Positions 4,081-63,723 of a stretch of DNA of 64,000 nucleotides are shown here, one piece after another; the stretch's first letter is position 1, and each line of letters starts with the position of its first letter. The DNA is from Candidatus Nomurabacteria bacterium. GTDB lineage: Bacteria > Patescibacteriota > Minisyncoccia > Phycocordibacterales > UBA9973. The DNA is taken from contig JAHFNS010000002.1 of the NCBI GenBank assembly GCA_023267215.1, forward strand, positions 192,892 to 256,891. Direction: 5' to 3'. The notes under the pieces were generated by a model. It made no database searches. It was not told the DNA's origin and worked only from the letters and a program-made list of their open reading frames with translations. The position numbers and the translations under genes are program-made.

Positions 4081-6375
4081 CTATTTTTCTGACCTTTCTT
4101 TTAGAACAATTATTTCATCGCGTAAAATTGCAGCTGTTTCAAAATCTAATTCTTTCACTGCTTTATTCATTTCACGCTCTTTAATTTTAATTATTTTATC
4201 ATAAACAACTTTATTACGTTCTTCGTCTGAAAGCATTGTATTTTTTATTGAATCCGACTCATTTTTTCCTTTATTGCTTTTTTCTTTTTTAAATGCTTTT
4301 TTGAATAACTCAATATCAAGTGACAGTTCAGTATTCACAGCTTTCCCATGTTCACTTTCCATTTCTTGTGTGATGTCTTTAATATTTTTTATTATTGTTT
4401 TTGGAGTAATACCATTTTCTTTATTATAAGCAAGCTGAATATTTCTACGACGAGTTGTTTCTCCTATCGCTCTATCCATAGAACCAGTCATTGTGTCGGC
4501 ATAAAGAATAACCTTACCTTCACTATTACGAGCAGCACGGCCAATGGTCTGAATCAAAGCTGTTTCTGAACGCAAAAACCCTTCTTTATCGGCATCTAAT
4601 ATACCAATCAAGGCTACTTCTGGTAAATCTAATCCTTCCCTTAGTAAGTTTACTCCAACCAATACATCAAACTCTCCTCTTCTAAATTGAGTAAGAATTT
4701 TTATTCTATCTATTGTTTTAATATCACTATGAAGATATTCAGCTTTAATCTTTTTGTCTTTTAAATAAAGAGATAGATCCTCTGCCATTTTTTTTGTTAG
4801 TGTTGTCGCTAAAACACGGAAACCTTTCTTGATTGTTTTCTCTGCTTCTTTTATAAAATCCTGAATCTGCCCGGGATAGTACTCAGAGGAGTATTCGCTA
4901 CGACCAGATAAAACTTGCCCTTCCAAGATAGAGTGCGAACGACGGCGAGCACTATCCCGGGCAGATTCTTCCGAGACAGGCCTTACTGAAATTTCTGGAT
5001 CTACAAGACCAGTCGGGCGAATTATTTGTTCTACCATTTGTTCGCTTTGAGTACGTTCTTGTTCACTAGGCGTTGCGCTAGTATAAACAACAGGACCAAT
5101 CTTTTCACTAAATTCTTCATATTTTAAAGGCCTATTATCCTTTGCTGAAGGTAGACGAAAACCATATTCCACAAGGGTATTTTTACGAGAAGCATCGCCT
5201 GCATACATACCCTGCAATTGTGGTAAGGTTACATGTGATTCATCAATAATTGTTAAAAAGTCTGGTCCCCCCGAAGCTGGGCTTAAGGACTTCTGTTTTT
5301 TATTACCTGCCCCTAAGCCCAGCTTCGGGGAAACGGGAAAGTAAGAAAGCAATGTCTCTGGTGGTTCACCTTCTTTTTTATCTGATAAATGTCTAGAATA
5401 ATTTTCTATGCCATTACAATATCCAACTTCTTTTATCATCGCCAAATCATAGTTAGTTCTTCTCTTTATACGCTCTGCTTCCAATAATTTTCCTTCTTTT
5501 TCAAATTTCTTTAATTGTTTGTTTAATTCTTTTTTTATTTCTACTAATGCTTTTTTCTTTTTTACATCTTCGGTAATAAAATGTTTAGCTGGAAAAATAA
5601 AAATGTCTTTTTTTTCTTCAATTATTTGGGAAGAAATTGGATCAATTTTTTTTATTTCACTCAAAACCGAATTTAAAGCTGGGCTTTGGGGATTCTTAAA
5701 GCCCAGCTTTTGAATACCAAATTCTATTTGATACATCATTGTTTCAGAAACTGGCATAAATTCTACCCTAGAACCAATAGAACGAAAGGTCCCTGGGGTT
5801 AAATCAACATTCGTACGTTCAAAATGAATCGCAATTAACTTTTTCATTAAAGTCATCCTATCCATTTTCATTCCAACCTTTAACTTCAAATTAACCTTTT
5901 CATATTCTTCTGGTGAACCTAAACCATAAATACAAGAAACAGATGCAACAATTATCACATCACGTCTAGTAAGTAGGGCTTGTGTGGTAGCGTGACGCAA
6001 GCGGTCTATCTCTTTATTTATCTGTGCATCTTTTTCTATATAAGTATCTGATGCAGGCATATATGCTTCCGGCTGATAATAATCATAATAAGAAACAAAA
6101 TAATGCACAGCAGCTTCTGGAAAAAATTCTCGAAATTCTGAAGCAAGTTGTGCAGCTAGGGTTTTATTATGAGCTATTACAAGTGTTGGTTTATTATATT
6201 TTGCTATTACATTAGCAACAGTAAAAGTCTTACCCGTGCCTGTAGCGCCGATCAATGTCTGCTTATTCATTCCCTTCTTAAGTCCTTCTAAAAGCTTTAA
6301 AATAGCCTTCGGTTGGTCTCCTGCGGGCTTAAAAGGACTATGTAATTTAAAAATACTCCCTTGATTTTCTACCAT
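4081..6375 (-). CDS. uvrB: Excinuclease ABC subunit B (UvrB), enlarged by three in-frame hairpin insertions
   Basis: Helicase motif I GATGTGKTFT. YYDYYQPEAY beta-hairpin region. C-terminal UvrB/UvrC interaction motif. 764 aa versus ~660 typical. Confidence 0.95.
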   Translation of the reverse strand: MVENQGSIFKLHSPFKPAGDQPKAILKLLEGLKKGMNKQTLIGATGTGKTFTVANVIAKYNKPTLVIAHNKTLAAQLASEFREFFPEAAVHYFVSYYDYYQPEAYMPASDTYIEKDAQINKEIDRLRHATTQALLTRRDVIIVASVSCIYGLGSPEEYEKVNLKLKVGMKMDRMTLMKKLIAIHFERTNVDLTPGTFRSIGSRVEFMPVSETMMYQIEFGIQKLGFKNPQSPALNSVLSEIKKIDPISSQIIEEKKDIFIFPAKHFITEDVKKKKALVEIKKELNKQLKKFEKEGKLLEAERIKRRTNYDLAMIKEVGYCNGIENYSRHLSDKKEGEPPETLLSYFPVSPKLGLGAGNKKQKSLSPASGGPDFLTIIDESHVTLPQLQGMYAGDASRKNTLVEYGFRLPSAKDNRPLKYEEFSEKIGPVVYTSATPSEQERTQSEQMVEQIIRPTGLVDPEISVRPVSEESARDSARRRSHSILEGQVLSGRSEYSSEYYPGQIQDFIKEAEKTIKKGFRVLATTLTKKMAEDLSLYLKDKKIKAEYLHSDIKTIDRIKILTQFRRGEFDVLVGVNLLREGLDLPEVALIGILDADKEGFLRSETALIQTIGRAARNSEGKVILYADTMTGSMDRAIGETTRRRNIQLAYNKENGITPKTIIKNIKDITQEMESEHGKAVNTELSLDIELFKKAFKKEKSNKGKNESDSIKNTMLSDEERNKVVYDKIIKIKEREMNKAVKELDFETAAILRDEIIVLKERSEK
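4866..4966. repeat. ~100-nt MITE-like element with 19-bp terminal inverted repeats (TCTGCCCGGGATAGTACTC / GAGCACTATCCCGGGCAGA) inserted in-frame in uvrB
   Basis: Inverted repeat read directly. Encodes VRPVSEESARDSARRRSHSILEGQVLSGRSEYSSEYYPGQI. The CCCGGGATAG segment resembles the family-2 core. Confidence 0.7.
5267..5330. repeat. Family-1 hairpin element with 20-bp arms (CCCCGAAGCTGGGCTTAAGG / CCTAAGCCCAGCTTCGGGG) in-frame in uvrB
   Basis: Seen in sequence. Encodes PKLGLGAGNKKQKSLSPASGGP. Confidence 0.8.
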
Positions 6376-7772: not shown

Positions 7773-10238
7773 CTATTTAACCTCTCCAAAATTGTCCCCT
7801 GAACCAAAATGCACCAAGAGAGGAATATCTGTTTTGTATTTTAAATATGACCTTTCTAGGACCGTTTGCATGGCATTTTCTATTATTTTTTGAGCCTCTC
7901 CCAGCACTCCCTCCTCTACTTCATAAACTAACTCATCATGTATTTGTAAAACAAGATGTGCCTTATCCAATAATTTTGCTTTTTCTAAATCTTCTTCAGC
8001 ATACCTGATGGCAAGTTTTATTATATCCGCAGTAGCTGTGCCTTGGACGGGAGCATTTATAGCTGTACGTTCTGCCATATTTTTCAAAAATGGAATTCTA
8101 GAATTTATATTCGGAAAATACCTACGTCTACCAAAGAGAGTTTCGGTATAATTATTTTTCATTGCAAAAATTTTTACTCCTTCTAAATAATCCCGCAAGC
8201 CAGAAAATTGATTGAAATAATTGTCATAAAATTTTTGAGCTTCTTCTCTAGTACCTCCTAAACTTTTACGCAAAGCTGAAACCCCCATACCATAAATGAT
8301 ACCGAAATTTATAACTTTCGCTTTGCGACGCATTTCAGCATCTACTTTATCTATCGGTACACCAAAAACAAATGAGGCCACTCCCGCATGAATATCTTTG
8401 CCTTCGCGGAAAATTGCTGTCATCTTTTTATCTCCCGAAAGCATCGCTGCTACGCGAAGCTCTATCTGGCTATAATCAAAAGCCACGAGTTTGCATCCTT
8501 CCCCCGCGATAAAACCATTCCTTATTTTTTTACCTAGCTCTGTTTTGATTGGTAAATTTTGTAAATTTGGATCTTGAGAAGAAAATCTTCCTGTGGTCGT
8601 GCCATTTTGTAAAAATTTAGCATGTAAACGACCATCTTCTGCAATCATCTTTGGAATCACATCAATATAAGTAGAAAGCAATTTCTGTAATTCCCGATAA
8701 GAAAGAATTTCTTTTATAATTGGATTATCTTCTTCAAGTTCTTCTAAGACAGAAACTTTCGTGGAAAAAGAACCACTAGCATTTTTCTTTTTACTTGACT
8801 TCATTCCCATTTTCCCAAAAAGAACTTCTCCCATTTGTTTTGGAGAATTGATATTAAATTCTATCCCGGCTATTTTATATATTTTAGCTGTTAGTTTATC
8901 TAACTCTTGGTGATATTCTTTTGATATTTTTTCAAAATATTCCTTGTCTATAAGAATGCCCCACTCCTGCATCTCTTTGACTATTGGTATTATTGGCTTC
9001 TCTATCTCTTCATATACTTTTTCTAATCCTTTTTCTTTCAGCTTTTTAAAGATATATTCATAGGCTTTTTCAAAAGAATCGGCGTTGGCAAAATGCAAAA
9101 TATCATCCTGTGTAGGATTGGTTATATCTGAATTTATAAGCCAGAGGGCAATAGCTGCTTCTTGAAACTTTTCTTCAGAAATTTCTACAGAGGAAATCGG
9201 AGAAAGCAAAGTTTTGTCGGCCTCAAAAGACGAATCAAGAGAATTTTCTGATGGTCTGGCTGGGGGTCGGGGCCCCAGAGAACCGAGGACCTCAGAAAAT
9301 TCTGCTGGATTTGTCTTTTGACTATTGCTAAAAAAGTTTTTTAGACGCGCAAATAAACTTCTAAACTCAAATAAAGAAAAAGTTGTTTCAATTTTCTTCA
9401 AATCTGCATTTTCCCAAAAAGTTTTCTCTGGCAATTTGAAATCTACTGGGGCATCTGTCCTGATTTTTGCTAAAGTTTTGGAAAACAAAGCTTCTTCTTC
9501 ATTATTTTTTATTAATTCTAAAATTCTTGGAGAAATACCTTTTTTTATAAAAACACTCTCATCTTTTTTAATTTTTTTATATATTTCTTCTATCGTTCCA
9601 AAATTTACAATCAAATTAGTAGCCGTTTTTTCTCCAATACCTTTGATTCCAATAATATTATCAGACGGATCACCTCGTAAACCTTTATAATCTGGTAAAA
9701 GTTTCGGCTTAAATCCAAATCTATCCATAACTTTTTCTTCGTCATATAAAATCGTATCATTGATTCCCTTCTTCAGGGTGTACACTTGCACTTTTTTATC
9801 ATCTATTAATTGCATCGTATCCATATCGCCCGAGGCAATGACTATGTTTATGTTTTTATCTTTTTTTAATTTCTCAACTATCGTACCTAATACATCATCT
9901 GCCTCAAAGCCTGGAGCATCATAAATAGGCACGTTAAAGGCCTCAAAAATTTGCCTAGAATTTTTTAACTGCAAAACAAGAGCATCATCCGTCTTAGCCC
10001 TACCTGCTTTGTATTGGTCATAAGCTTCGTGTCTAAAGGTCTTTTGCGGTAAATCATAACAAGCCACGATATAATCAGGTTTTAAATCTGTAATTATCTT
10101 CATCAGCATTGTAGAAAGCCCATAAAGCGCCCCTGTCGGTTCGCCTTTAGAAGACAAAAATTCAGGCAACGCATGATAAGCCCGATGTATTATCGCATGA
10201 GAATCTAACAACACTAATGTCTTTTTGTCTTTAGTCAT
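7773..10238 (-). CDS. polA: DNA polymerase I (5'-3' exonuclease plus family A polymerase)
   Basis: N-terminal 5'-nuclease motifs (LVLLDSHAIIHRAYHAL). Polymerase motifs RRKAKVINFGIIYGMG and QIHDELVYEV. 821 aa. Confidence 0.95.
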   Translation of the reverse strand: MTKDKKTLVLLDSHAIIHRAYHALPEFLSSKGEPTGALYGLSTMLMKIITDLKPDYIVACYDLPQKTFRHEAYDQYKAGRAKTDDALVLQLKNSRQIFEAFNVPIYDAPGFEADDVLGTIVEKLKKDKNINIVIASGDMDTMQLIDDKKVQVYTLKKGINDTILYDEEKVMDRFGFKPKLLPDYKGLRGDPSDNIIGIKGIGEKTATNLIVNFGTIEEIYKKIKKDESVFIKKGISPRILELIKNNEEEALFSKTLAKIRTDAPVDFKLPEKTFWENADLKKIETTFSLFEFRSLFARLKNFFSNSQKTNPAEFSEVLGSLGPRPPARPSENSLDSSFEADKTLLSPISSVEISEEKFQEAAIALWLINSDITNPTQDDILHFANADSFEKAYEYIFKKLKEKGLEKVYEEIEKPIIPIVKEMQEWGILIDKEYFEKISKEYHQELDKLTAKIYKIAGIEFNINSPKQMGEVLFGKMGMKSSKKKNASGSFSTKVSVLEELEEDNPIIKEILSYRELQKLLSTYIDVIPKMIAEDGRLHAKFLQNGTTTGRFSSQDPNLQNLPIKTELGKKIRNGFIAGEGCKLVAFDYSQIELRVAAMLSGDKKMTAIFREGKDIHAGVASFVFGVPIDKVDAEMRRKAKVINFGIIYGMGVSALRKSLGGTREEAQKFYDNYFNQFSGLRDYLEGVKIFAMKNNYTETLFGRRRYFPNINSRIPFLKNMAERTAINAPVQGTATADIIKLAIRYAEEDLEKAKLLDKAHLVLQIHDELVYEVEEGVLGEAQKIIENAMQTVLERSYLKYKTDIPLLVHFGSGDNFGEVK

Positions 10239-16287: not shown

Positions 16288-16316
16288 ATAAAAAACCGCC
16301 TATCAGGCGGTTTTTT
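16288..16316. terminator. Bidirectional rho-independent terminator AAAAAACCGCCTATCAGGCGGTTTTTT
   Basis: GC stem CCGCC/GGCGG with A-run before and T-run after. Sits between convergent genes (small ORF on plus, tyrS on minus). Confidence 0.8.
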
Positions 16317-20067: not shown

Positions 20068-20100
20068 AAAAGCGTACATATTTCGTACGCTTTTTGTTTT
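20068..20100. terminator. Intrinsic terminator AGCGTACATATTTCGTACGCTTTTT
   Basis: 7-bp stem plus T-run directly after the PBP stop. Also faces the convergent minus-strand gene. Confidence 0.7.
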
Positions 20101-22435: not shown

Positions 22436-22683
22436 ATGTTTATATATTATATATTTAATTTATTAATACTATTAAGACTGTGAATAAGTGGATAAATGAA
22501 TTTTATATATATAATATATGACTACTTTGTAATTTATTTTTATATTATATATATATTATCTTTTCCTAAAAATATATTTATTTTTTTTAAACACACTTTT
22601 GTTAATTTTTATACTATTTTATCAACAAGCCTTACTTTGATTAATACTACTTTATAACTATCTTATGATTTGTTTATCAACAG
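22436..22683. promoter_or_regulatory. Probable oriC: AT-rich unwinding region (TATATATA runs) plus DnaA-box-like 9-mers between dnaA and dnaN
   Basis: One-mismatch DnaA boxes GTGGATAAA (~22487), TGTGAATAA (~22478), TTATCAACA (~22650 and ~22672). Extreme AT content with alternating TA tracts. Confidence 0.6.
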
Positions 22684-24656: not shown

Positions 24657-24870
24657 CTTTTATCAAAAAATTATAGCCCCTCTTTTAAAAAAATTTTTAG
24701 AGAGTTTTGGGTTATTAAGAAACAATTCTTGCACTTTTTATCCTACTTGTTCAGAATATACCAGAGAAGCTATAAAAAAATATGGTATTTTAAAAGGTTC
24801 TTTTCTTGGTTTTTGGCGAATCCTTCGTTGTCATCCTTGGCAAAAGAATCACATTGACCCACTAAAGTAA
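24616..24870 (+). CDS. yidD: Membrane protein insertion efficiency factor YidD (true start probably an internal Met)
   Basis: Motif CTFYPTCSEYTREAI...RILRCHPW. Confidence 0.85.
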   Translation: MKMKLKIFSTKLISFYQKIIAPLLKKFLESFGLLRNNSCTFYPTCSEYTREAIKKYGILKGSFLGFWRILRCHPWQKNHIDPLK

Positions 24871-24972
24871 AAAACTAGAGTAGTGCTTTTTCACGGCTCG
24901 CACTCGAACCTGACAATGGTTTACAAAACTAATATTGCGTATGCCGAAAAAAGCACTACTCTAGTTTTTTTA
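24868..24972. repeat. Conserved-core hairpin element, copy 1
   Basis: Stem arms AAAAACTAGAGTAGTGCTTTTT / AAAAAGCACTACTCTAGTTTTT enclose the conserved ~55-nt core (tcACGGCTCGCACTCGAACCTGAcAATGGTTTACaAAacTAATATTGCGTATGccg). Sits directly after the yidD stop. Confidence 0.7.
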
Positions 24973-24996
24973 TCTGTTTTCGTATAGAATGAAAGA

Positions 24997-26304: not shown

Positions 26305-26384
26305 CACCTCATCCCCCGCCTTCTCTTTGTAAAGTAGAAGGAGCAAAAACCCTCTCCTTTATAAGGAGAGGGTAGGGTGAGGTT
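26305..26384. repeat. Composite structured element: outer stem ACCTCATCCC/GGGTGAGGT enclosing hairpin CCTTCT...AGAAGG and family-3 hairpin CCCTCTCCTTTATAAGGAGAGGG
   Basis: Seen directly in the sequence, between convergent jag and the first gene of the island. Near-identical family-3 unit at 21302-21337 and 44484-44521. Confidence 0.6.
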
Positions 26385-45181: not shown

Positions 45182-47323
45182 TTATAAATAAATAGTTTTT
45201 ATTCCATTTTTCTCTTCTTCTTTTTCTAATAAATCATTCGGAATATCTCCAAGAAATTCTGACGGTGCATTTATTTGTTTTGAACCAAAGATGGTGCGGA
45301 AATTAGCAAATGATAAAAATAATTTTTCACGAGCTCGTGTGAGTGCAACATAAAAAAGTCTGCGTTCTTCTTCTTGGTCTTCAGCACTTTTTCTTTCACC
45401 ATCTTTTCGATGAGGGAAAAGTCCATCTTCAAGTCCAGTAATGAAAACATATTTAAATTCAAGTCCCTTGGATGCATGCACTGTCATAAGTTTCACTCCC
45501 CTTTTTTCTTCTTTTTTATCTACATTATTTATCAGACTATCTTGGTCTGAAGCTAAAGAAGCATCTTCTAAAAGTTTCTCAATTCCCATTCCACCCTTTA
45601 AATTATCATATTTTAGAGCTAAAGTTGCCAATTCTTTTATATTTTCTAGTCTTTCCATTTCTTCTTCTCCTCCAGCTAAAAGTTCTGTTTCTATACCTGA
45701 TTTTTTGATTGTAAATTTAATTACGTCTGATGCTTTTTCTATTTCTATTTTTTCTTTTATATCTTTTAAAATTTTGTAAAAATTATCAATTTTTATTTTT
45801 ACTTTTATCGGCAGACTTTCTTCTTCTCCGGCTTGCCCCGCCATGGCGGTGGCGAAAATTTTTGCAAGCGTCACCTTTCCTATTCCCCTAGCTGGAAAAT
45901 TTATAATTCTTTTAATATCAGAAAGACTTTGAGGATTGAGTGCTGCACGAAGATATGCAAGAGTATCTTTGATTTCTTTTCTTTCGAAAAATTTTACACC
46001 TAAAACTTGATATGGGATGTTGTATCTTAGCATTGCTTCTTCTAGCGCTCGTGATTGAAAATTTGCACGATATAAAATTGCTATTTTAGACAAAGTTGCG
46101 GATACTACTTTTGTAGGGTCGCTGTCTCCGCTTACTAGCGGAGCGCTGCCTCTCGGCTCGTCAGCCTGCGAGACACCCTCCAAAAGCACATTCGCAACTT
46201 TGTCTTGCAACTCTATAATTTTTGTCGCGACAAAATCTGCTTCATCGTTCTCATCGAGTGCTTCATAAAAACCTATTTTTTCTCCTATTTTATTTTTGGT
46301 AAATAAATTTTTATCAGGCCTATATTTATTTTTCTTTATTATTTCATTAGCTGCTTCCAGAATATTTTGAGTAGATCGATAATTTTCTTCTAATAAAATT
46401 ATTTTTGTATCTTTACCATAATCTTTCTCAAAGCTCAAAATATTTTTTAAATTTGCTCCACGCCAAGAATAAATATTTTGATCTGCGTCTCCGACTACAC
46501 AAATATTTTTATTATTTTCAGAAAGTAGTTTTGACATCAAATATTGCACTTCGTTCGTGTCTTGATACTCGTCTATATGAATATAATCCCATTTTTCTTG
46601 ATAAATTTTTCTTATTTCTTTATTATCTTGCAGTAATTTTGTCGCTTTCAAAAGTAAATCATCAAAATCTAATGAATTTTCTTTCATTTTTTTCTTTTCA
46701 TACAGACTCCAAACTTGAGAAACTATTTTTGTTAAAAAATTCGCCCCAGGTTCGTTAGATATTTCTTCATAATCAGCGAGATGAGTAAATTTCCCTTTTT
46801 CTCTACTAATAATGTTCCCTATTTTTCGTGGTTCATATTGTTTTGGGTCTAGATTCAATTCTTTTAATGATTCTTTAATAAGAGAAGTAGAATCTGCTTC
46901 ATCTAAAATAGTGAAATGCCTTGTTAGTCCTAAAATTCTAGCGTTTTCTTTTATTATATATACTCCCAAAGAGTGAAAAGTGGAAACAAAGGGCCTGCTA
47001 ATAATTTCGCCGGTAATGCTTTTTGTCATGGTCTGGCCGGGATAGGGACCCGGAGATCCGAGGACCTGAGAAAAAGCATTACCGGCGAAATTTATTTTTA
47101 TTGCTGAAGTGATCCTTTCCTGCATTTCTTTGGCTGCTTTGTTTGTAAAAGTCACAGCTAAAATTTTCTCTGGAGCTACTCCATTTTTTATTAAATTTAG
47201 TATTCTATGGGTTATGGTCTTGGTTTTTCCTGCTCCAGCCCCTGCCACGATCAAAAGCGGTCCATTCATGTGAATAGCCGCCTCTCGTTGTTTAGGGTTT
47301 AATTCTTTTAAATGTTCGTCCAT
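45182..47323 (-). CDS. UvrD/PcrA/Rep-family ATP-dependent DNA helicase with in-frame insertions
   Basis: Motif I LLIVAGAGAGKTKTITHRI, motif Ia AVTFTNKAAKEM, TFHS, DEYQDTN. Confidence 0.9.
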   Translation of the reverse strand: MDEHLKELNPKQREAAIHMNGPLLIVAGAGAGKTKTITHRILNLIKNGVAPEKILAVTFTNKAAKEMQERITSAIKINFAGNAFSQVLGSPGPYPGQTMTKSITGEIISRPFVSTFHSLGVYIIKENARILGLTRHFTILDEADSTSLIKESLKELNLDPKQYEPRKIGNIISREKGKFTHLADYEEISNEPGANFLTKIVSQVWSLYEKKKMKENSLDFDDLLLKATKLLQDNKEIRKIYQEKWDYIHIDEYQDTNEVQYLMSKLLSENNKNICVVGDADQNIYSWRGANLKNILSFEKDYGKDTKIILLEENYRSTQNILEAANEIIKKNKYRPDKNLFTKNKIGEKIGFYEALDENDEADFVATKIIELQDKVANVLLEGVSQADEPRGSAPLVSGDSDPTKVVSATLSKIAILYRANFQSRALEEAMLRYNIPYQVLGVKFFERKEIKDTLAYLRAALNPQSLSDIKRIINFPARGIGKVTLAKIFATAMAGQAGEEESLPIKVKIKIDNFYKILKDIKEKIEIEKASDVIKFTIKKSGIETELLAGGEEEMERLENIKELATLALKYDNLKGGMGIEKLLEDASLASDQDSLINNVDKKEEKRGVKLMTVHASKGLEFKYVFITGLEDGLFPHRKDGERKSAEDQEEERRLFYVALTRAREKLFLSFANFRTIFGSKQINAPSEFLGDIPNDLLEKEEEKNGIKTIYL
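47004..47092. repeat. Family-2 element: core TGGTCTGGCCGGGATAGGGACCCGGAGATCCGAGGACC flanked by 26-bp copy-specific inverted repeat, in-frame in uvrD
   Basis: Core shared with 55886-55923 (cca, 37/38 identical) and a diverged copy at 9252-9291 (polA). Arms AATTTCGCCGGTAATGCTTTTTGTCA / TGAGAAAAAGCATTACCGGCGAAATT. Confidence 0.8.
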
Positions 47324-48426: not shown

Positions 48427-48465
48427 AAAAAGCCACGTATCAAACAATGATCGTGGCTTTTCTGC
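48427..48465. terminator. Intrinsic terminator AAGCCACG...CGTGGCTTTTCT
   Basis: 8-bp GC-containing stem plus T-run after the 47958-48413 ORF. Convergent with the minus-strand 849-aa gene. Confidence 0.6.
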
Positions 48466-52750: not shown

Positions 52751-52856
52751 AAAAAACCAAGCTAATATTTTTTCATGACTCGCACTCGAACCTGACAATG
52801 GTTTACGAATGTAATATTGCGTATGTCAAAAAAAGTATTAACTTGGCTTTTTTGTT
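52749..52856. repeat. Conserved-core hairpin element, copy 2
   Basis: Arms CCAAGCTAATATTTTTT / AAAAAAGTATTAACTTGG enclose core tcATGACTCGCACTCGAACCTGACAATGGTTTACGAATGTAATATTGCGTATGTCa. Sits directly after the M23 peptidase stop, between convergent genes. Confidence 0.7.
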
Positions 52857-53582
52857 TTATATTCCTGCTAATTTTATTGCACCATAGAGAACAGCGACAC
52901 CGAGTATTGTAGATGCCGTGGTCCACTTTGTCGGATGGTCGTGATGACTTTCTGGCAACAAGTCAGAGGCGCCAATATAGAGGAAAAAGCCTGTAAATAT
53001 AGCAAGAATCACGCCTAGGGTCGATTCAGAGACAGAGAAAAATAAAGTTGAAAGTATCCCCAAAACCGGAGCAACGGCATCAACTAGAAGCCATTTGAAA
53101 GCTTGAGCACGAGTGCCAGAATTTTTCAAAACCATATTCACAGTATTTATGCCATCAGAAAAATCATGTACCAAGACAGCGACAGCGACTATTCCTCCGA
53201 TAATTGCAGAAACTTGAAAAGCGAGACCTATGGCCATGCCGTCTATGAAACTATGTATAGATAAACTTCCTGCACCGAGCACTCCCCTTTTGTTTAAATT
53301 AATTTCTTCGTCATCATGCGCACTGTGTGAATGAAAAAAAACAAATCTATCTAAAACCATATAAATAATAAAACCGAGAGCTGCGATGGAAGTTATAAAA
53401 TTAATATCATAAATTCCGTTTCCAAGTTCTAATGCTTCAGGCAACAAATCAAAAAAAGCCACACCGATCACAGCCCCGGCTGAAAATCCTAAAATCAAAT
53501 GTAGTTTATCTTTAAAACGCAAAGCGAACATTCCTCCTAGAAAGGTAGAAATTAATGTCGCTATGCTTATTAAAATTATCAT
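52857..53582 (-). CDS. ZIP-family metal cation transporter (ZupT-like)
   Basis: Conserved His-containing TM motifs HSFIDGMAIGLAF and HDFSDGINTV. 8 predicted TM helices. Confidence 0.8.
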   Translation of the reverse strand: MIILISIATLISTFLGGMFALRFKDKLHLILGFSAGAVIGVAFFDLLPEALELGNGIYDINFITSIAALGFIIYMVLDRFVFFHSHSAHDDEEINLNKRGVLGAGSLSIHSFIDGMAIGLAFQVSAIIGGIVAVAVLVHDFSDGINTVNMVLKNSGTRAQAFKWLLVDAVAPVLGILSTLFFSVSESTLGVILAIFTGFFLYIGASDLLPESHHDHPTKWTTASTILGVAVLYGAIKLAGI

Positions 53583-53833: not shown

Positions 53834-53839
53834 AAGACT

Positions 53840-53920
53840 AAAAACTAGAATATAAAAGTTTTCGCCTGCGGGCACTGGCTTCGTTTTGTCCGCCAGAAAA
53901 TTTTTGATATTCTAGTTTTT
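53840..53920. terminator. Long hairpin AAAAACTAGAATAT...ATATTCTAGTTTTT (14-bp arms, 53-nt loop containing an inner hairpin CTGGC/GCCAG); bidirectional terminator-like
   Basis: Perfect inverted repeat with A-run before and T-run after. Sits at the 3' end of the yraN-like gene next to the tRNA fragment. Confidence 0.5.
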
Positions 53921-53927
53921 AACTATA

Positions 53928-54904: not shown

Positions 54905-56575
54905 ATGGCCTCTATAGAAACAAAAAACTTAATATCTAAAATTCCCAAGGAAGTTTCACATGTAACAGAGACCTTAGAAAAGGCCGGTTTTGAGGCATAT
55001 TTAGTCGGTGGTTGTGTACGAGACCTAGTGATAGGTAGGGAACCAAAAGATTGGGATGTGACAACTAACGCCAGACCAGATCAAATAATCAGTTTATTTG
55101 AGAAAACTGTATATGAAAACAATTTTGGGACGGTTATAGTGGTTCTCCCCCTGCTAAGGGGGAGTGGTTCGGTAAACCGAACCGAGGGGGTGGTTTCACG
55201 AGAAACAGACTCCTCCTCAATTCTCCCCTTTGCAGGGGAGGAAAATATACTAATAGAAGTTACACCATATAGAACAGAGGCAAAATATACTGATTTTAGG
55301 CATCCAGACGAGGTTTTGTTTAGCGATAATTTAGAAGATGATCTTAAAAGACGTGATTTTACAGTAAATGCAATGGCCTATAGAAATGGAAGCATAACGG
55401 ACATGTTTGATGGTCTAAAGGACATCAAAGAAAAAGTGTTAAAGACAGTAGGGGAAGCAGATCATAGATTTACAGAAGATGCTCTTAGAATGCTTAGAGC
55501 TATAAGAATAGCTTTACAACTTGATTTTTCTGTTTCTCATGAAACAACTGAAAGCATCATAAAGAATGCAGATTTAATAAAAAAAATATCACCAGAAAGA
55601 ATTCGAGATGAATTTGTAAAAATAATTTTATCCCCAAATCCATCTGTCGGAATAGTGATGTTGGAAAAATTTGGTTTATTAAAAAATATTGTTCCTGAAT
55701 TGGAAGAGGGAATAAATTGCGAACAAGGAGGGGAGCATATTTATGATGTTTGGAATCATTTACTTCATGCATTACAGCATGCTGCAGACAAAAACTGGCC
55801 TTTGGAAATAAGGCTTGCTGCGCTTTTTCATGATATTGGGAAACCCCGAGCTCGTAGGTTGGCAGAGTTGACGAATAATTTAGCATGGTCTGGCCGGGAT
55901 AGGGACCCGGGGATCCGAGGACCTGATAAATTATTTGGCAACCCTGCCAACAAGAAGAAATATACTTTTTATGGTCATGAAGTTGTGAGTGCAAAAATGA
56001 CAAAAAAAATAATGGAGAAGTTAAAATTTTCAAGAAAAGAAATTGATTTGACCGAAAAACTTGTTCGTAACCATATGTTTTTTTCCGACACAGAACAGAT
56101 TACACTTTCTGCTGTCAGGAGAATAATTACGAAAGTTGGTGCTGAAGATGTGTGGTCTCTAATGAATGTGCGTGAATGTGACAGAGTCGGGATGAAGAAA
56201 AAAGAAGCACCATATCGTTTACGAAAATATTTTGCCATGATAGAAGAAGCATTGCATGATCCTATCTCTGTTGGACAACTCAAAATAGATGGGGAATTTA
56301 TGATAAAAGAGCTCTGTATTGCACCAGGTCCTCGTATGGGATGGATATTGAATGCACTTCTTGAAGAAGTGTTAGATGACCCAGCAAAAAATACAGAAAA
56401 ACATTTGAGTGAACTCGTTAAATCTTTAAATATGCTCGGTGACGCAGAATTAAAAACATTGGGGGATAGGGGAAAAGAAAAAAAAGAAGAACTTGAAGAA
56501 AAGGAAGTAGAAAAACTGCATTCTAAGCATGCTGTGTCCTTCGAAGTGAAGCGAAGTAGGAGGGTGAAAAAATAA
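54905..56575 (+). CDS. cca: CCA-adding enzyme / tRNA nucleotidyltransferase with HD domain, carrying in-frame hairpin insertions and a K/E-rich C-terminal extension
   Basis: Pol-beta nucleotidyltransferase motif GGCVRDLVIGREPKDWDVTT. HD motif HDIGK. Insertions encode LPLLRGSGSVNRTEGVVSRETDSSSILPFAGEE and AWSGRDRDPGIRGPDKL. Confidence 0.85.
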   Translation: MASIETKNLISKIPKEVSHVTETLEKAGFEAYLVGGCVRDLVIGREPKDWDVTTNARPDQIISLFEKTVYENNFGTVIVVLPLLRGSGSVNRTEGVVSRETDSSSILPFAGEENILIEVTPYRTEAKYTDFRHPDEVLFSDNLEDDLKRRDFTVNAMAYRNGSITDMFDGLKDIKEKVLKTVGEADHRFTEDALRMLRAIRIALQLDFSVSHETTESIIKNADLIKKISPERIRDEFVKIILSPNPSVGIVMLEKFGLLKNIVPELEEGINCEQGGEHIYDVWNHLLHALQHAADKNWPLEIRLAALFHDIGKPRARRLAELTNNLAWSGRDRDPGIRGPDKLFGNPANKKKYTFYGHEVVSAKMTKKIMEKLKFSRKEIDLTEKLVRNHMFFSDTEQITLSAVRRIITKVGAEDVWSLMNVRECDRVGMKKKEAPYRLRKYFAMIEEALHDPISVGQLKIDGEFMIKELCIAPGPRMGWILNALLEEVLDDPAKNTEKHLSELVKSLNMLGDAELKTLGDRGKEKKEELEEKEVEKLHSKHAVSFEVKRSRRVKK

Positions 56576-56678
56576 AAATACAAAAATAGATACTTTTTCA
56601 CGGCTCGCACTCGAACCTGAAAATGGTTTACGAAACTAATATTGCGTATGCCAAAAAAAGTATCTATTTTTGTATTTT
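56573..56678. repeat. Conserved-core hairpin element, copy 3
   Basis: ~25-bp arms AAAAATACAAAAATAGATACTTTTT / AAAAAGTATCTATTTTTGTATTTTT enclose core tcACGGCTCGCACTCGAACCTGAAAATGGTTTACGAAACTAATATTGCGTATGCCa. Sits directly after the cca stop. Confidence 0.7.
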
Positions 56679-56679
56679 T

Positions 56680-56976
56680 CTACTCACCACTTTCACTGAT
56701 AGAAAAATCGTCAAAATCATTTTTGGCTTCGTGCCAAGAAACAGAAAAATTTTCTATCGGAGATAATAGAAAAAATCTTTTTTTCCCAGTTTGTAATTTT
56801 CTCATAAAAAAAAGAAGATTTTGTTCTTCTCCTTCTGCTACAACTTTTATACTGCCATCATTTTTAACAAAAGCGACACCTTTTAATTCTAGGTTAATAG
56901 CATGATTATAAATCCATAATAGATAATCATAATTTAAATTTCTTCCCCACATTAAACATTCTATACATTTTTGCAT
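56680..56976 (-). CDS. Acylphosphatase-like protein (true start probably an internal Met)
   Basis: LKGVAFVKNDGSIKVVAEGEE resembles the acylphosphatase beta-alpha-beta fold signature. ~90 aa. Confidence 0.5.
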   Translation of the reverse strand: MQKCIECLMWGRNLNYDYLLWIYNHAINLELKGVAFVKNDGSIKVVAEGEEQNLLFFMRKLQTGKKRFFLLSPIENFSVSWHEAKNDFDDFSISESGE

Positions 56977-62220: not shown

Positions 62221-63157
62221 CTAATAAATGCTTGTCTGTGACGTGAGTGTATATCTGAGTAGTGGCAATGTTCGAGTGTCCAAGCATAATTTGTACCGAG
62301 CGAATGTCTGCACCGTTTGAAAGCAAGTCTGTAGCGAAACAATGCCTGATGACGTGGGGGGTGACCTTCTTTGAGATGCCGGCTTTTATGGCGTATTGTT
62401 TTACAATTCTTTCTATTGATCTTTTTGTCAGCGCACTAGCCATAATCTGATCTTTTGATTTTTGTTTTTTTAGATTTTTATCTAGGTCTGATTTTTTAGA
62501 AACGATTTCTTTTCCGACTTGCACAAATAGAGCTTCTTCCATATCTTTTCGCAAAGCTAAATATTTTTTAATAGCGTTCTTTGCTTCTTCTGATATAAAG
62601 ACGACGCGCACTTTGCCTCCTTTTCCGCGGATAGAAAATTGATCAACCCTTAAGTCTAAGTCATTCGTCAGACTACAAAGCTCGGATACACGAAGTCCTG
62701 TAGAAAAAAGTAATTCCAATATTGCTTTATCACGAAGTGATTTTATATCATCTCCTTTCGGAGCGTCGAGTAGGCGAGAAAGCTCTGTTTGAGAAATGAG
62801 GTCGAGAGATCTCTCTGTGACTTTCGCTAGCTCTATCTGATCTCTCGGCATAGACTTTATGCCTCTTTTGGTCAGATATTTCAAAAATACTCGGAGAGCT
62901 ATCAGGTAATAATTTTGAGTTTTTTTTGATAATGTTGCCCCCGTGGCTCTGTTGTTGCCGGTCGACTGTCTGTTTAGCCAAAGTCTGAATTCTCGCACAG
63001 ATGAGTCTGTGATGTCTTCTCCATCTTTTGCTTTTGAAAAATTTAAATAACGCGTGAGATATCTATCATAGTTTTCGACAGTTTTTAGGCTCGAACCTTT
63101 TTCGATTTCTAGATATTCTAGAAACTCCCTTTTTAATTTTTCTAAGTCAGATGCCAT
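62189..63157 (-). CDS. xerD: Tyrosine site-specific recombinase XerC/XerD family
   Basis: C-terminal catalytic region HVIRHCFATDLLSNGADIRSVQIMLGHSNIATTQIYTHV (R..H..R..Y). N-terminal core-binding domain. Confidence 0.85.
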   Translation of the reverse strand: MASDLEKLKREFLEYLEIEKGSSLKTVENYDRYLTRYLNFSKAKDGEDITDSSVREFRLWLNRQSTGNNRATGATLSKKTQNYYLIALRVFLKYLTKRGIKSMPRDQIELAKVTERSLDLISQTELSRLLDAPKGDDIKSLRDKAILELLFSTGLRVSELCSLTNDLDLRVDQFSIRGKGGKVRVVFISEEAKNAIKKYLALRKDMEEALFVQVGKEIVSKKSDLDKNLKKQKSKDQIMASALTKRSIERIVKQYAIKAGISKKVTPHVIRHCFATDLLSNGADIRSVQIMLGHSNIATTQIYTHVTDKHLLDVHKKFHSKK

Positions 63158-63204: not shown

Positions 63205-63293
63205 ACAAATAGTGTTTTTTACAACTCGCATATCAACCTGGAAACAATATACGAACTTTTAAGTAGCGTATGTTGCAAAAAACACTATTTGCA
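63205..63293. repeat. Conserved-core hairpin element, copy 4 (diverged core) in the xerD/rpsO divergent intergenic region
   Basis: Perfect 15-bp arms CAAATAGTGTTTTTT / AAAAAACACTATTTG enclose core acAACTCGCATATCAACCTGGAAACAATATACGAACTTTTAAGTAGCGTATGTTGc. Confidence 0.6.
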
Positions 63294-63588
63294 TTTTCTT
63301 GAACTTTATGCTAAGATAAATGACATGTTAACTACAAAGAAAAAGCAAACAATTATAAAGAAAAACCAAGCTCATGAGAAAGACACAGGATCTTCTGCTG
63401 TTCAGGTGGCTATTTTGTCTACACAAATAGAGGAATTAGCAAAACACTTAAAGAAACACAAAAAAGATAATAGTTCTCGTCGTGGACTTATAAAGATGGT
63501 TGCTGATAGACGCACTCATTTAAAATATTTAGAAAGAAAAGACAAGACACAATACAACGCAGTAATGAAGAAGATGAATCTTGCATAG
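63289..63588 (+). CDS. rpsO: 30S ribosomal protein S15 (true start probably ATG ~63313)
   Basis: Conserved S15 sequence ...DTGSSAVQVAILSTQIEELAKHLKKHKKDNSSRRGLIKMVADRRTHLKYL. Confidence 0.85.
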   Translation: MHFLELYAKINDMLTTKKKQTIIKKNQAHEKDTGSSAVQVAILSTQIEELAKHLKKHKKDNSSRRGLIKMVADRRTHLKYLERKDKTQYNAVMKKMNLA

Positions 63589-63723
63589 TCAAAATAATAA
63601 GAAATTACTTTTATAAAACACGACATAATTTTCTGCTGAAAATTTGCTATGCTCGGCTCGTCAGCCTGTGCAATGTTTTCTAAAAGCATTTTCTTATTAT
63701 TTTATTCGTGGTATTATAAAATC

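Follow-up and report, generated by a model that had tools for sequence, protein, structure and literature searches.

Several kinds of non-autonomous spacer element, about 100 bp long and built of inverted repeats, are known from bacteria: the Correia elements of Neisseria, RUP, BOX and SPRITE in pneumococcus, and ERIC. They fold as RNA, and they may terminate transcripts or be processed. The hairpins of the REP and BIME repeats of Enterobacteria and Pseudomonas can also act as terminators or as stabilisers of messenger RNA (mRNA). Rickettsia palindromic elements (RPE) are said to comprise several palindromic families of some 100–150 bp that lie in the spacers of a reduced genome, and in frame within its essential genes, their mechanism of transposition reportedly being unknown. 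The genomes of the candidate phyla radiation (CPR, or Patescibacteria) are tiny and usually described as streamlined and repeat-poor; the organisms are uncultured, and their non-coding features are almost unexplored. Here we describe a hairpin element present in four copies in a 64,000-nt stretch of a Candidatus Nomurabacteria genome (contig JAHFNS010000002.1, positions 192,892 to 256,891); this whole stretch is referred to as the window. The element has a conserved apex enclosed by long arms that vary freely in sequence yet remain paired. It shares its position and its hairpin nature with REP/BIME/REPIN repeats, with terminator-forming MITEs (miniature transposable elements with inverted repeats) and with RPE, and it appears to lack the defining features of each that we tested.

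Searches of the window placed the four copies as follows, the scores being those of a covariance model:

24866-24973, + strand: copy 1, type A, core at 24897-24943, with a 26-bp stem and a 56-nt apex; 127.6 bits
52749-52856, + strand: copy 2, type A, core at 52779-52825; 120.9 bits
56572-56681, + strand: copy 3, type A, core at 56604-56650; 119 bits
63198-63299, + strand: copy 4, type B, core at 63225-63272; 90.8 bits

The original prediction had placed four copies here, and exactly four were recovered, by a gapped pattern and by the model alike. A 31-nt core pattern with up to three mismatches matches three times in the window and the gapped pattern four times, against no match in shuffled sequence; a covariance model trained on 23 copies, applied with filters off to the whole 64 kb, revealed no fifth copy. 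The element of the window is about 105 nt long (n = 4) and consists of an A-run, a near-perfect stem of 20–29 bp, a conserved apex of 46–56 nt and a T-run, the order within the hairpin being arm, T4–5, conserved apex, A4–5 and complementary arm. The core of copy 4 is about 60% identical to type A, and this copy is accordingly assigned to a subfamily, type B. Each copy folds as one long hairpin, its energy between −27 and −44 kcal/mol; relative to shuffles the z-scores run from −4.5 to −9.5, and as far as −10 when either strand is considered. All four have the same orientation and lie to the right of dnaA/oriC.

Three of the copies start in or next to a stop codon, as had been claimed (yidD, 24870; M23 peptidase, 52750; cca, 56575). 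Copy 1 begins inside the yidD stop codon (24868-24870), with the promoter and start of yidC (24997) downstream. The spacer between the convergent genes for the M23 peptidase and a ZIP transporter (stop at 52857) is wholly occupied by copy 2, and that between the convergent cca and acylphosphatase genes (the latter with its stop at 56680) by copy 3. Copy 4 lies between the divergent rpsO and a xerC-like gene (start at 63157); its right arm overlaps what we read as a likely −35 element of the rpsO promoter, the site listing containing no such site on the + strand. On both strands a stable hairpin is followed by a U-tract, which is the form of an intrinsic terminator. The view that the copies, with an A-run upstream and a T-run downstream, are putative bidirectional terminators at gene ends is thereby supported at the level of sequence and fold.

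A search for further copies beyond the window had been proposed as a test of the element. The model identified 27 distinct A/B copies among the window and related Paceibacteria/Nomurabacteria loci; L-numbers below (L002 to L036) denote the loci or contigs of relatives used for comparison. Nearly all of the 27 are bordered by A-runs and T-runs, and they fold with −27 to −50 kcal/mol on either strand. All are intergenic, with none inside an open reading frame (ORF), and they adjoin stop codons, one case sitting instead after a tRNA gene. Copies 1–3 and most of those in relatives lie at the 3′ end of a gene, copy 4 and the L007 copy in a spacer between divergent genes, and the copies of L013 and L006 upstream of a gene. 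Between tandem genes the core reads in the sense direction in nearly every case; the L011 copy is antisense to both of its neighbours. The flanking genes have no common functional theme, and elsewhere type B is found at pyrG, tyrS and dedA sites.

The core pattern is present in 5 of 185,579 species-level genomes, all of them metagenome-assembled genomes of Paceibacterota or Nomurabacteria, and in 21 metagenome contigs, for the most part from groundwater. Viral contigs gave zero matches to the pattern, and plasmid and phage collections no match to the element. Copy density is very uneven, with four copies in the 64 kb of the window and two in 20 kb (L034), and a single match to the pattern in a contig of 598 kb; three syntenic relatives have no copies over 62 kb, nor does L036 have any. 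The core had not been recognised as any known RNA family, and Rfam is indeed silent at both gathering and permissive thresholds: a cmscan of the window and five loci against Rfam 15 at gathering thresholds returned tRNAs only or nothing, and when copy 1 was scanned permissively, nothing came up but hairpins of superficial likeness that score below threshold (Vault, with 18.7 bits where 34 are required, and plant microRNA precursors). Literature searches yielded no description of such elements in CPR bacteria.

The original prediction had taken covariation of the innermost pairs as the sign of a selected RNA structure, and this covariation is borne out. Over 21 modelled pairs in the 27 copies, 95.4% of cells are paired, versus 83.9% after shuffling (none of 500 shuffles reaches the observed value), and pairing falls to 42–55% when the partners are slid out of register. 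Changes on both sides are seen in 15 of the 21 pairs. The pairs adjoining the apex vary as CGGC/GCCG, TGAC/GTCA, CAAC/GTTG, CGAC/GTCG and TGGC/GCCA, and one copy, in L034, carries a C-G to T-A change within the inner CGCA/TGCG helix beside the apex. Orthologous stems at the yidD site differ, CTAGAGTAGTGC in the window, CTAGAGCAGTAC in L025 and TCAGAGCAGTAC in L034, each with its matching complement. An AACC/GGTT helix inside the apex is unsupported, being missing from type B and having a neighbouring position that varies without compensation. In about 10 copies the 5′ arm is bulged by a single base, at a position common to them.

The non-Watson–Crick cells comprise 7 G·T, 10 A·C, 9 T·T and 6 A·A. 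Since G·T does not exceed A·C and the mismatches are strand-symmetric, pairing is maintained at the level of both strands. The complementary strand folds slightly better in 22 of 26 copies, a difference that comes mostly from the shared apex, vanishes in the stems and does not count as independent evidence. An assignment of strand from the G·U tally and the minimum free energy, which had first favoured the opposite strand, was dropped: the 21 modelled pairs, with 7 cells against 10, give no ground for choosing either strand.

The stems had been called completely different in every copy. This holds within the window, where arm identity between copies is 29–57% against 33% expected from composition, and it does not hold more widely: arms are 55–61% alike among type A copies, the inner 10–12 bp follow a family consensus, AAAAyAryTrC-TTTTT, that is also found at non-orthologous sites, and the arms of orthologous copies are clearly related. 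In the apex, the blocks CTCGCA, AACCTG, TAC and GCGTATG occur at fixed spacing in types A and B, with differing sequence between them. The search pattern itself demanded these blocks, so that only the copies found by the model test them; in those copies they are mostly retained. At three sites we compared orthologous pairs whose flanking proteins are 57–84% identical and whose four-fold degenerate sites, at 24–53% identity, are at or near saturation. There the 60-nt apex region is 83–95% identical, and 14–20 of 22 positions match in the left arm. Identity of this order in the face of saturated four-fold sites indicates that the apex, and the arms less so, is constrained, or else is repeatedly renewed. 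Paralogs within a genome share apex variants: TGACAATGG in the window and in L025, CTCCAACC in both L010 copies (and also in L026), and the 3′ half in both L018 copies. With few informative positions, these shared variants give hints of exchange between paralogous copies.

Comparison of orthologous sites, including regions that lack the core, is the most informative of the results and shows that the whole hairpin comes and goes. The yidD–yidC spacer contains family A at three loci (the window, L025 and L034) and measures only 39–41 nt at two others, L027 and L032, which have neither hairpin nor arm sequence there. In L029 the same spacer holds a hairpin of another family, C (L029:9893-9976), with the core of window 53839-53921 reversed, and in L033 the family-C arms of L029 surround a family-F hairpin. 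L035 has a family-D hairpin at this place and L028 unrelated AT-rich sequence. The spacer is thus a hot spot, which may hold A, C, C arms with a nested F, D, or nothing. Copy 2 has orthologs in L010 and L019, and the ZIP/M23 site is empty in L036, where the two stop codons are 3 nt apart (TAAAAATTA). Copy 3 has orthologs in L008 and at L010:4783-4897; in another relative, known here by gene coordinates without sequence, the cca/acylphosphatase spacer is 4 nt. Presence/absence polymorphism is therefore seen at three orthologous sites (yidD–yidC, ZIP/M23 and cca/acylphosphatase). The ortholog of copy 4, in L007, likewise lies between divergent genes. Replacement is seen at two further sites: the hppA 3′ end has family A in L021 and family D in L002, and at that of pyrG different types are found, A in L016 and B in L018.

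As the empty orthologous sites lack any hairpin, the arms arrive together with the core, and the whole hairpin is the unit of presence and absence. The insert is bordered by an A-run and a T-run that were there before it, and comparison of filled with empty yidD–yidC and ZIP/M23 sites gave no target-site duplication. After an orthologous 207-aa gene, L026:2200-2290 retains the arm AAAAAACACAAAGTAATACTTTTT of the family-A hairpin of L016:1195-1335 and the core is gone; a shortened counter-arm follows, and then a cassette with a RAYT-like gene. This core-less arm may be the footprint of an excision or deletion, or a rearrangement breakpoint at a hairpin. A small-loop scan of part of the loci, with the window outside that scan, gave no convincing core-less palindrome of this build.

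Two observations at the yidC site stand apart from the above. The promoter block GTTTTCGTATAGAAT of yidC is kept, with minor variants, in nearly all relatives whatever the spacer contains. In L030 and L031, Logan contigs of the same organism, the short-read contigs bearing YidC begin where the hairpin lies, about 70–100 nt upstream of yidC, which suggests that the assembly breaks there are caused by these repeats.

A scan of all collected DNA for hairpins with long stems and large loops revealed at least five further core families (C–G), again with copy-specific arms; in every one T4–5 lies directly 5′ of the core and A4–5 directly 3′. Family E has a conserved GC-rich core (TGGTCTGGCCGGGATAGGGACCCGGAGATCCGAGGACC) in copy-specific long stems and lies in frame within ORFs, and family F is characterised by CTCGGCTCGTCAGCCTG and an AATTTTCTGCTGAAAATT hairpin. 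The members located are:

window 55867-55942: family E, in the cca ORF 54905-56575, read through in frame
window 47000-47095: family E, in a uvrD/pcrA-like ORF, 45182-47323, minus strand
window 9223-9321: family E, in a polA-like ORF, 7773-10238, minus strand
window 53839-53921: family C, core GCCTGCGGGCACTGGCTTCGTTTTGTCCGCCA, between tRNA-Pro and a UPF0102/YraN gene
window 63591-63703: family F, intergenic, after rpsO
window 46088-46205: family F, inside the uvrD-like ORF
L011:4773-4864, L023:9379-9482, L023:11771-11886 and L033:9830-9975: family F in relatives
L002:671-788, L024:5816-5939, L026:8623-8744 and L035:9845-9950: family D, with a two-hairpin core similar to that of family F

In L008 (L008:7681-7760) the family-E hairpin of cca occupies the codon position that it has in the window. 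In the cca gene of L010 it stands at that position inverted as a unit, with the reading frame kept, the outcome that recombination between inverted arms would produce. Other hairpins were seen inside genes of the window. A uvrB-like ORF (4081-6375, minus strand) contains long GC-rich hairpins in frame at 4863-4968 and 5265-5334, and cca has a further in-frame GC-rich hairpin at 55124-55273 (−65 kcal/mol) that is missing from the L008 and L010 orthologs. Genes of this lineage seem to gather hairpin insertions in variable protein loops.

Enzymes that handle hairpins are encoded in the clade. Five RAYT-like proteins of the Y1 (IS200-type) group, 211–223 aa long, match Pfam Y1_Tnp, with matches to NCBIfam REP_Tyr_transpos below the cutoff. 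Their genes are at:

L002:5663-6304
L004:678-1349
L006:899-1558
L026:2286-2921
L034:1-432

These genes lie 1.7–9 kb from A/B copies and are unexpectedly frequent at family-A loci (5 of about 20), the comparison set being too small for weight to be placed on this figure. Each is bordered on both sides by short, GC-rich, genome-specific hairpins (CGGAGGAATTGCCTCCG, GGGTGTCCAACACCC, TGTGCAAAGTCGAACTTTGCACA and CACTTGGACATCCGATGTCCAAGTG among them), much as REPs border RAYT genes. The window has no RAYT-like gene. A RAYT protein as the mobilising enzyme of the element was rejected, these genes being flanked by other hairpins of their own, the window lacking the gene and the comparison set being too small, and is kept as a lead only. 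RAYT-like genes with their own hairpins show that hairpin-handling HUH enzymes exist in the clade, and not that they move the element.

Ordinary bidirectional terminators lie at other convergent gene ends of the window (16290-16316, 20068-20094 and 48427-48461). Each consists of an A-run, a GC-rich core stem of 5–6 bp (10–12 bp with the flanking A·U pairs), a loop of 5–17 nt and a T-run. A generic terminator scan of 44–64 kb found sites no more numerous than expected by chance. Elsewhere in the window, a GC-rich hairpin at 26306-26383, between jag and a convergent downstream gene (−43 kcal/mol, z = −5.9), is unlike the AT-rich elements. Among the genes of the window are dnaA, rnpA, yidD, a short yidC, jag and a type IV secretion-like cluster; this gene content, with the database hits, points to a CPR bacterium like the Paceibacteria/Nomurabacteria. 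The dnaN–dnaA spacer at 22440-22563 contains AT-only inverted and tandem repeats (TATATATTATATAT...) and is likely to be where oriC unwinds. At window 24975-24996 and 63300-63325, and at about 9975-10000 in L027, L032, L033 and L035, genes appear to use an extended −10 box (TATAGAAT, TGCTAAGAT) only about 7 nt before the ATG; this proximity suggests leaderless mRNAs.

Overall, we conclude that types A and B form one family in a set of interspersed palindromic hairpin elements specific to a Paceibacteria/Nomurabacteria clade of CPR. We give an even chance to the proposal that the element is a non-autonomous mobile hairpin whose apex is read by a trans-acting factor and which is kept in place as a bidirectional terminator or insulator. 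It would be, or would once have been, mobile, being copied as a hairpin unit into A/T-tract dyads at the ends of genes. The factor reading the conserved apex might be a mobilising or converting enzyme, or a host protein. Once in place, an A-tract, hairpin and U-tract on both strands would make a strong bidirectional intrinsic terminator or insulator, and termination in both directions would select for pairing, which would explain why pairing is kept equally on the two strands.

In favour of this proposal count the presence or absence of the whole hairpin at three orthologous sites, the changing occupants of the yidD–yidC, hppA and pyrG sites, the sister families of like build with family E in frame within genes, the inverted hairpin of L010, the patchy distribution, the arm consensus at non-orthologous sites, the constraint and covariation, the strand-symmetric mismatches and the flanking A- and T-runs. 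Several points weigh against it. No transposase for the element, no target-site duplication and no autonomous parent was found; the search for a longer element with the same ends, that is, a parent insertion sequence, covered the collected loci, viral contigs, plasmids and phages. The hairpins that flank the RAYT-like genes bear no relation to the A/B apex. For a copy to stay long at one site with its apex conserved fits a host-selected element and is unusual for selfish DNA. The copies of the window that have core variants in common differ in their arms, which is awkward if the arms travel with the core. A terminator has no obvious use between divergent genes, which is where copy 4 and its ortholog are found, and the existence of short ordinary terminators elsewhere means that a large apex is not required for termination. 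Finally, the sites scored as empty could in principle be clean deletions.

Chief among the rivals, and possible though clearly less probable than the mobile hairpin, is a host-selected RNA module acting in cis, which takes up the protein-binding or RNA-stability module suggested originally: a terminator or 3′-untranslated-region hairpin whose conserved apex binds a conserved protein or RNA, with a role for example in 3′-end processing, stability, RNase III entry or localisation. The copies would then stem from ancient duplication followed by inheritance, and the differences between genomes from loss. Constraint on the apex next to saturated four-fold sites speaks for such a module, as do the compensatory changes at orthologous loci, among them the C-G to T-A change in the inner helix of L034, the block spacing common to types A and B and the near-constant sense orientation of the core between tandem genes. 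It is harder to reconcile with one spacer that holds any of four core families or nothing among equally related genomes, or with an architecture that also occurs inside ORFs and can flip there. G·U is no commoner than A·C, unlike in typical helices of single-stranded RNA, and the invariance of the blocks is partly imposed by the search pattern. Moreover, the L011 copy runs antisense to both neighbours, copy 4 lies outside any obvious transcript, and the flanked genes have no functional theme. The mobile hairpin and the host module are not mutually exclusive, because a mobile element can be domesticated.

A more far-reaching possibility, which we regard as rather unlikely, is that the hairpins represent a new kind of mobile DNA, an AT-rich palindromic chassis with interchangeable apex modules (at least six families). 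Such a chassis would insert without duplication at the dyads of palindromes, among them the A/T tracts that follow stop codons, the middle of other hairpins and sites within essential genes where the frame is kept. Recombination between the arms would flip it, a hairpin-dependent process would keep the arms complementary, and an enzyme acting on single-stranded DNA, possibly of the RAYT-like Y1 HUH type, would read the apex.

According to the original prediction, a mini-element might insert into the loops of terminators; in this scheme a core of about 55 nt enters the loop or dyad centre of an existing terminator hairpin, and the stems are host sequence. Certain observations are as it would have them: in L033 a family-F hairpin lies within the very arms that enclose a family-C core at the same site in L029, L026 keeps an arm orthologous to that of L016 after loss of the core, the T4–5 and A4–5 that bound every core family would let core-less arms form a perfect palindrome, and paralogs have core variants in common and different arms. 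We nevertheless judge it improbable. The sequenced empty sites (L027, L032 and L036) have neither hairpin nor arms, and a fourth, known from coordinates, is a 4-nt spacer; the same architecture occurs inside ORFs, where there is no pre-existing terminator; the arms show a family-specific consensus at unrelated sites; ordinary terminators here have short GC-rich stems unlike the arms; and no core-less hairpin of this build emerged from the small-loop scan of part of the loci, to which the window did not belong. Loops may still serve as secondary targets, as the nested F hairpin of L033 and the core-less arm of L026 illustrate.

It is doubtful that the element is a site acting at the DNA level, with a cruciform or hairpin apex bound or cut by a recombinase, an HUH nuclease or a nucleoid protein in the service of a chromosomal function. 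Symmetric pairing on the two strands, blocks at fixed spacing, the shared bulge of the 5′ arm and the single orientation of the window copies to the right of dnaA/oriC would suit such a site; on the other hand, no partner gene was identified, close relatives have 0–4 copies per ~60 kb, and transcription accounts better for the tight abutment on stop codons and for the A- and T-runs. An independently transcribed family of small RNA genes, the third suggestion made originally, is very improbable: although the structure is conserved, has no coding potential and folds slightly better on the strand opposite to the annotated one, no conserved promoter occurs at a constant spacing, whole spacers are taken up by the elements from one stop codon to the next, and the folding asymmetry derives mostly from the shared core and is gone in the stems.

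Narrower candidates were rejected as well. A tRNA or T-arm relic was suggested by CAGGTTCGAGT on the opposite strand, but there is no closing stem, type B lacks the motif, and ARAGORN and Rfam are silent. A hammerhead-like core (CUGA...GAAA) fails at the catalytic positions, which are wrong for it and differ from copy to copy, and our reading of the alignment gave no conserved −35/−10 pair on either strand for a promoter inside the core. An S15 autoregulatory leader at copy 4 is contradicted in two ways, the hairpin being placed upstream of the −10 of rpsO and type B occurring at pyrG, tyrS and dedA as well. A parS- or dif-like site near oriC has no sequence match, and relatives have no copies in the same region; a phage or plasmid origin found no matches in those collections.

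The existence of the element is well established; its mobility and its function are proposals. Together with its sister families it takes up a noticeable share of the few spacers in these genomes, and the same build is tolerated inside cca, uvrD and polA. If mobile, it would be a new design of bacterial repeat, with a conserved loop and free arms, pointing to an unknown mobilising activity. If it is a host RNA module, it would be a new multi-copy cis-element with strong covariation, whose apex points to an unknown RNA-binding factor in organisms of minimal regulation. Either way, it gives studies of how transcription ends and how genomes change in CPR bacteria something concrete to test.

Among described systems, bidirectional intrinsic terminators share with the element the succession of A-tract, hairpin and T-tract between convergent genes, directly after stop codons; the AT-rich stems of 20–29 bp and the conserved 56-nt apex set it apart. 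Terminator-forming MITEs have conserved terminal inverted repeats and target-site duplications and decay after insertion, whereas the element has copy-specific arms and no duplication, and its pairing and apex have long been maintained. RPE resemble family E, which lies in frame inside genes, and differ from A/B, which is never in an ORF; RPE copies are alike including their arms, have no sequence relation to the element and belong to another phylum. IS1397 and ISKpn1 use a hairpin loop as a safe landing site, for which there is one nested case here (F inside C, in L033), but they are full insertion sequences that have a transposase and target existing palindromes, and the empty sites here have no palindrome. 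The hairpin repeats of mitochondria (sponge, algal, and the GC clusters of yeast) are similarly mobile and invade both spacers and coding regions of compact AT-rich genomes; they are organellar and unrelated in sequence, and we know of none with a conserved apex and variable arms.

The REP/BIME and REPIN–RAYT systems also consist of short palindromic hairpin repeats in spacers at gene 3′ ends, with long vertical persistence, and RAYT-like Y1 genes with flanking hairpins are present in these genomes too. The A/B repeats, however, do not flank the RAYT-like genes, and the conserved GTAG/CGTC tag is missing; the corresponding arm position reads RTAG in many copies and ATAA, ACAA, GCAG or TTAG in others. 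In REP it is the palindromic stem, of 20–40 nt, that is conserved and the loop that varies; in the element, conservation is in the apex and variation in the arms. Integron attC sites, with conserved R″/R′ at the base of the stem and a variable centre, have the opposite pattern of conservation to that seen here, and there is no integrase–cassette array around the A/B copies examined. A conserved apex on free but paired arms is the reverse of the design of REP and of attC.

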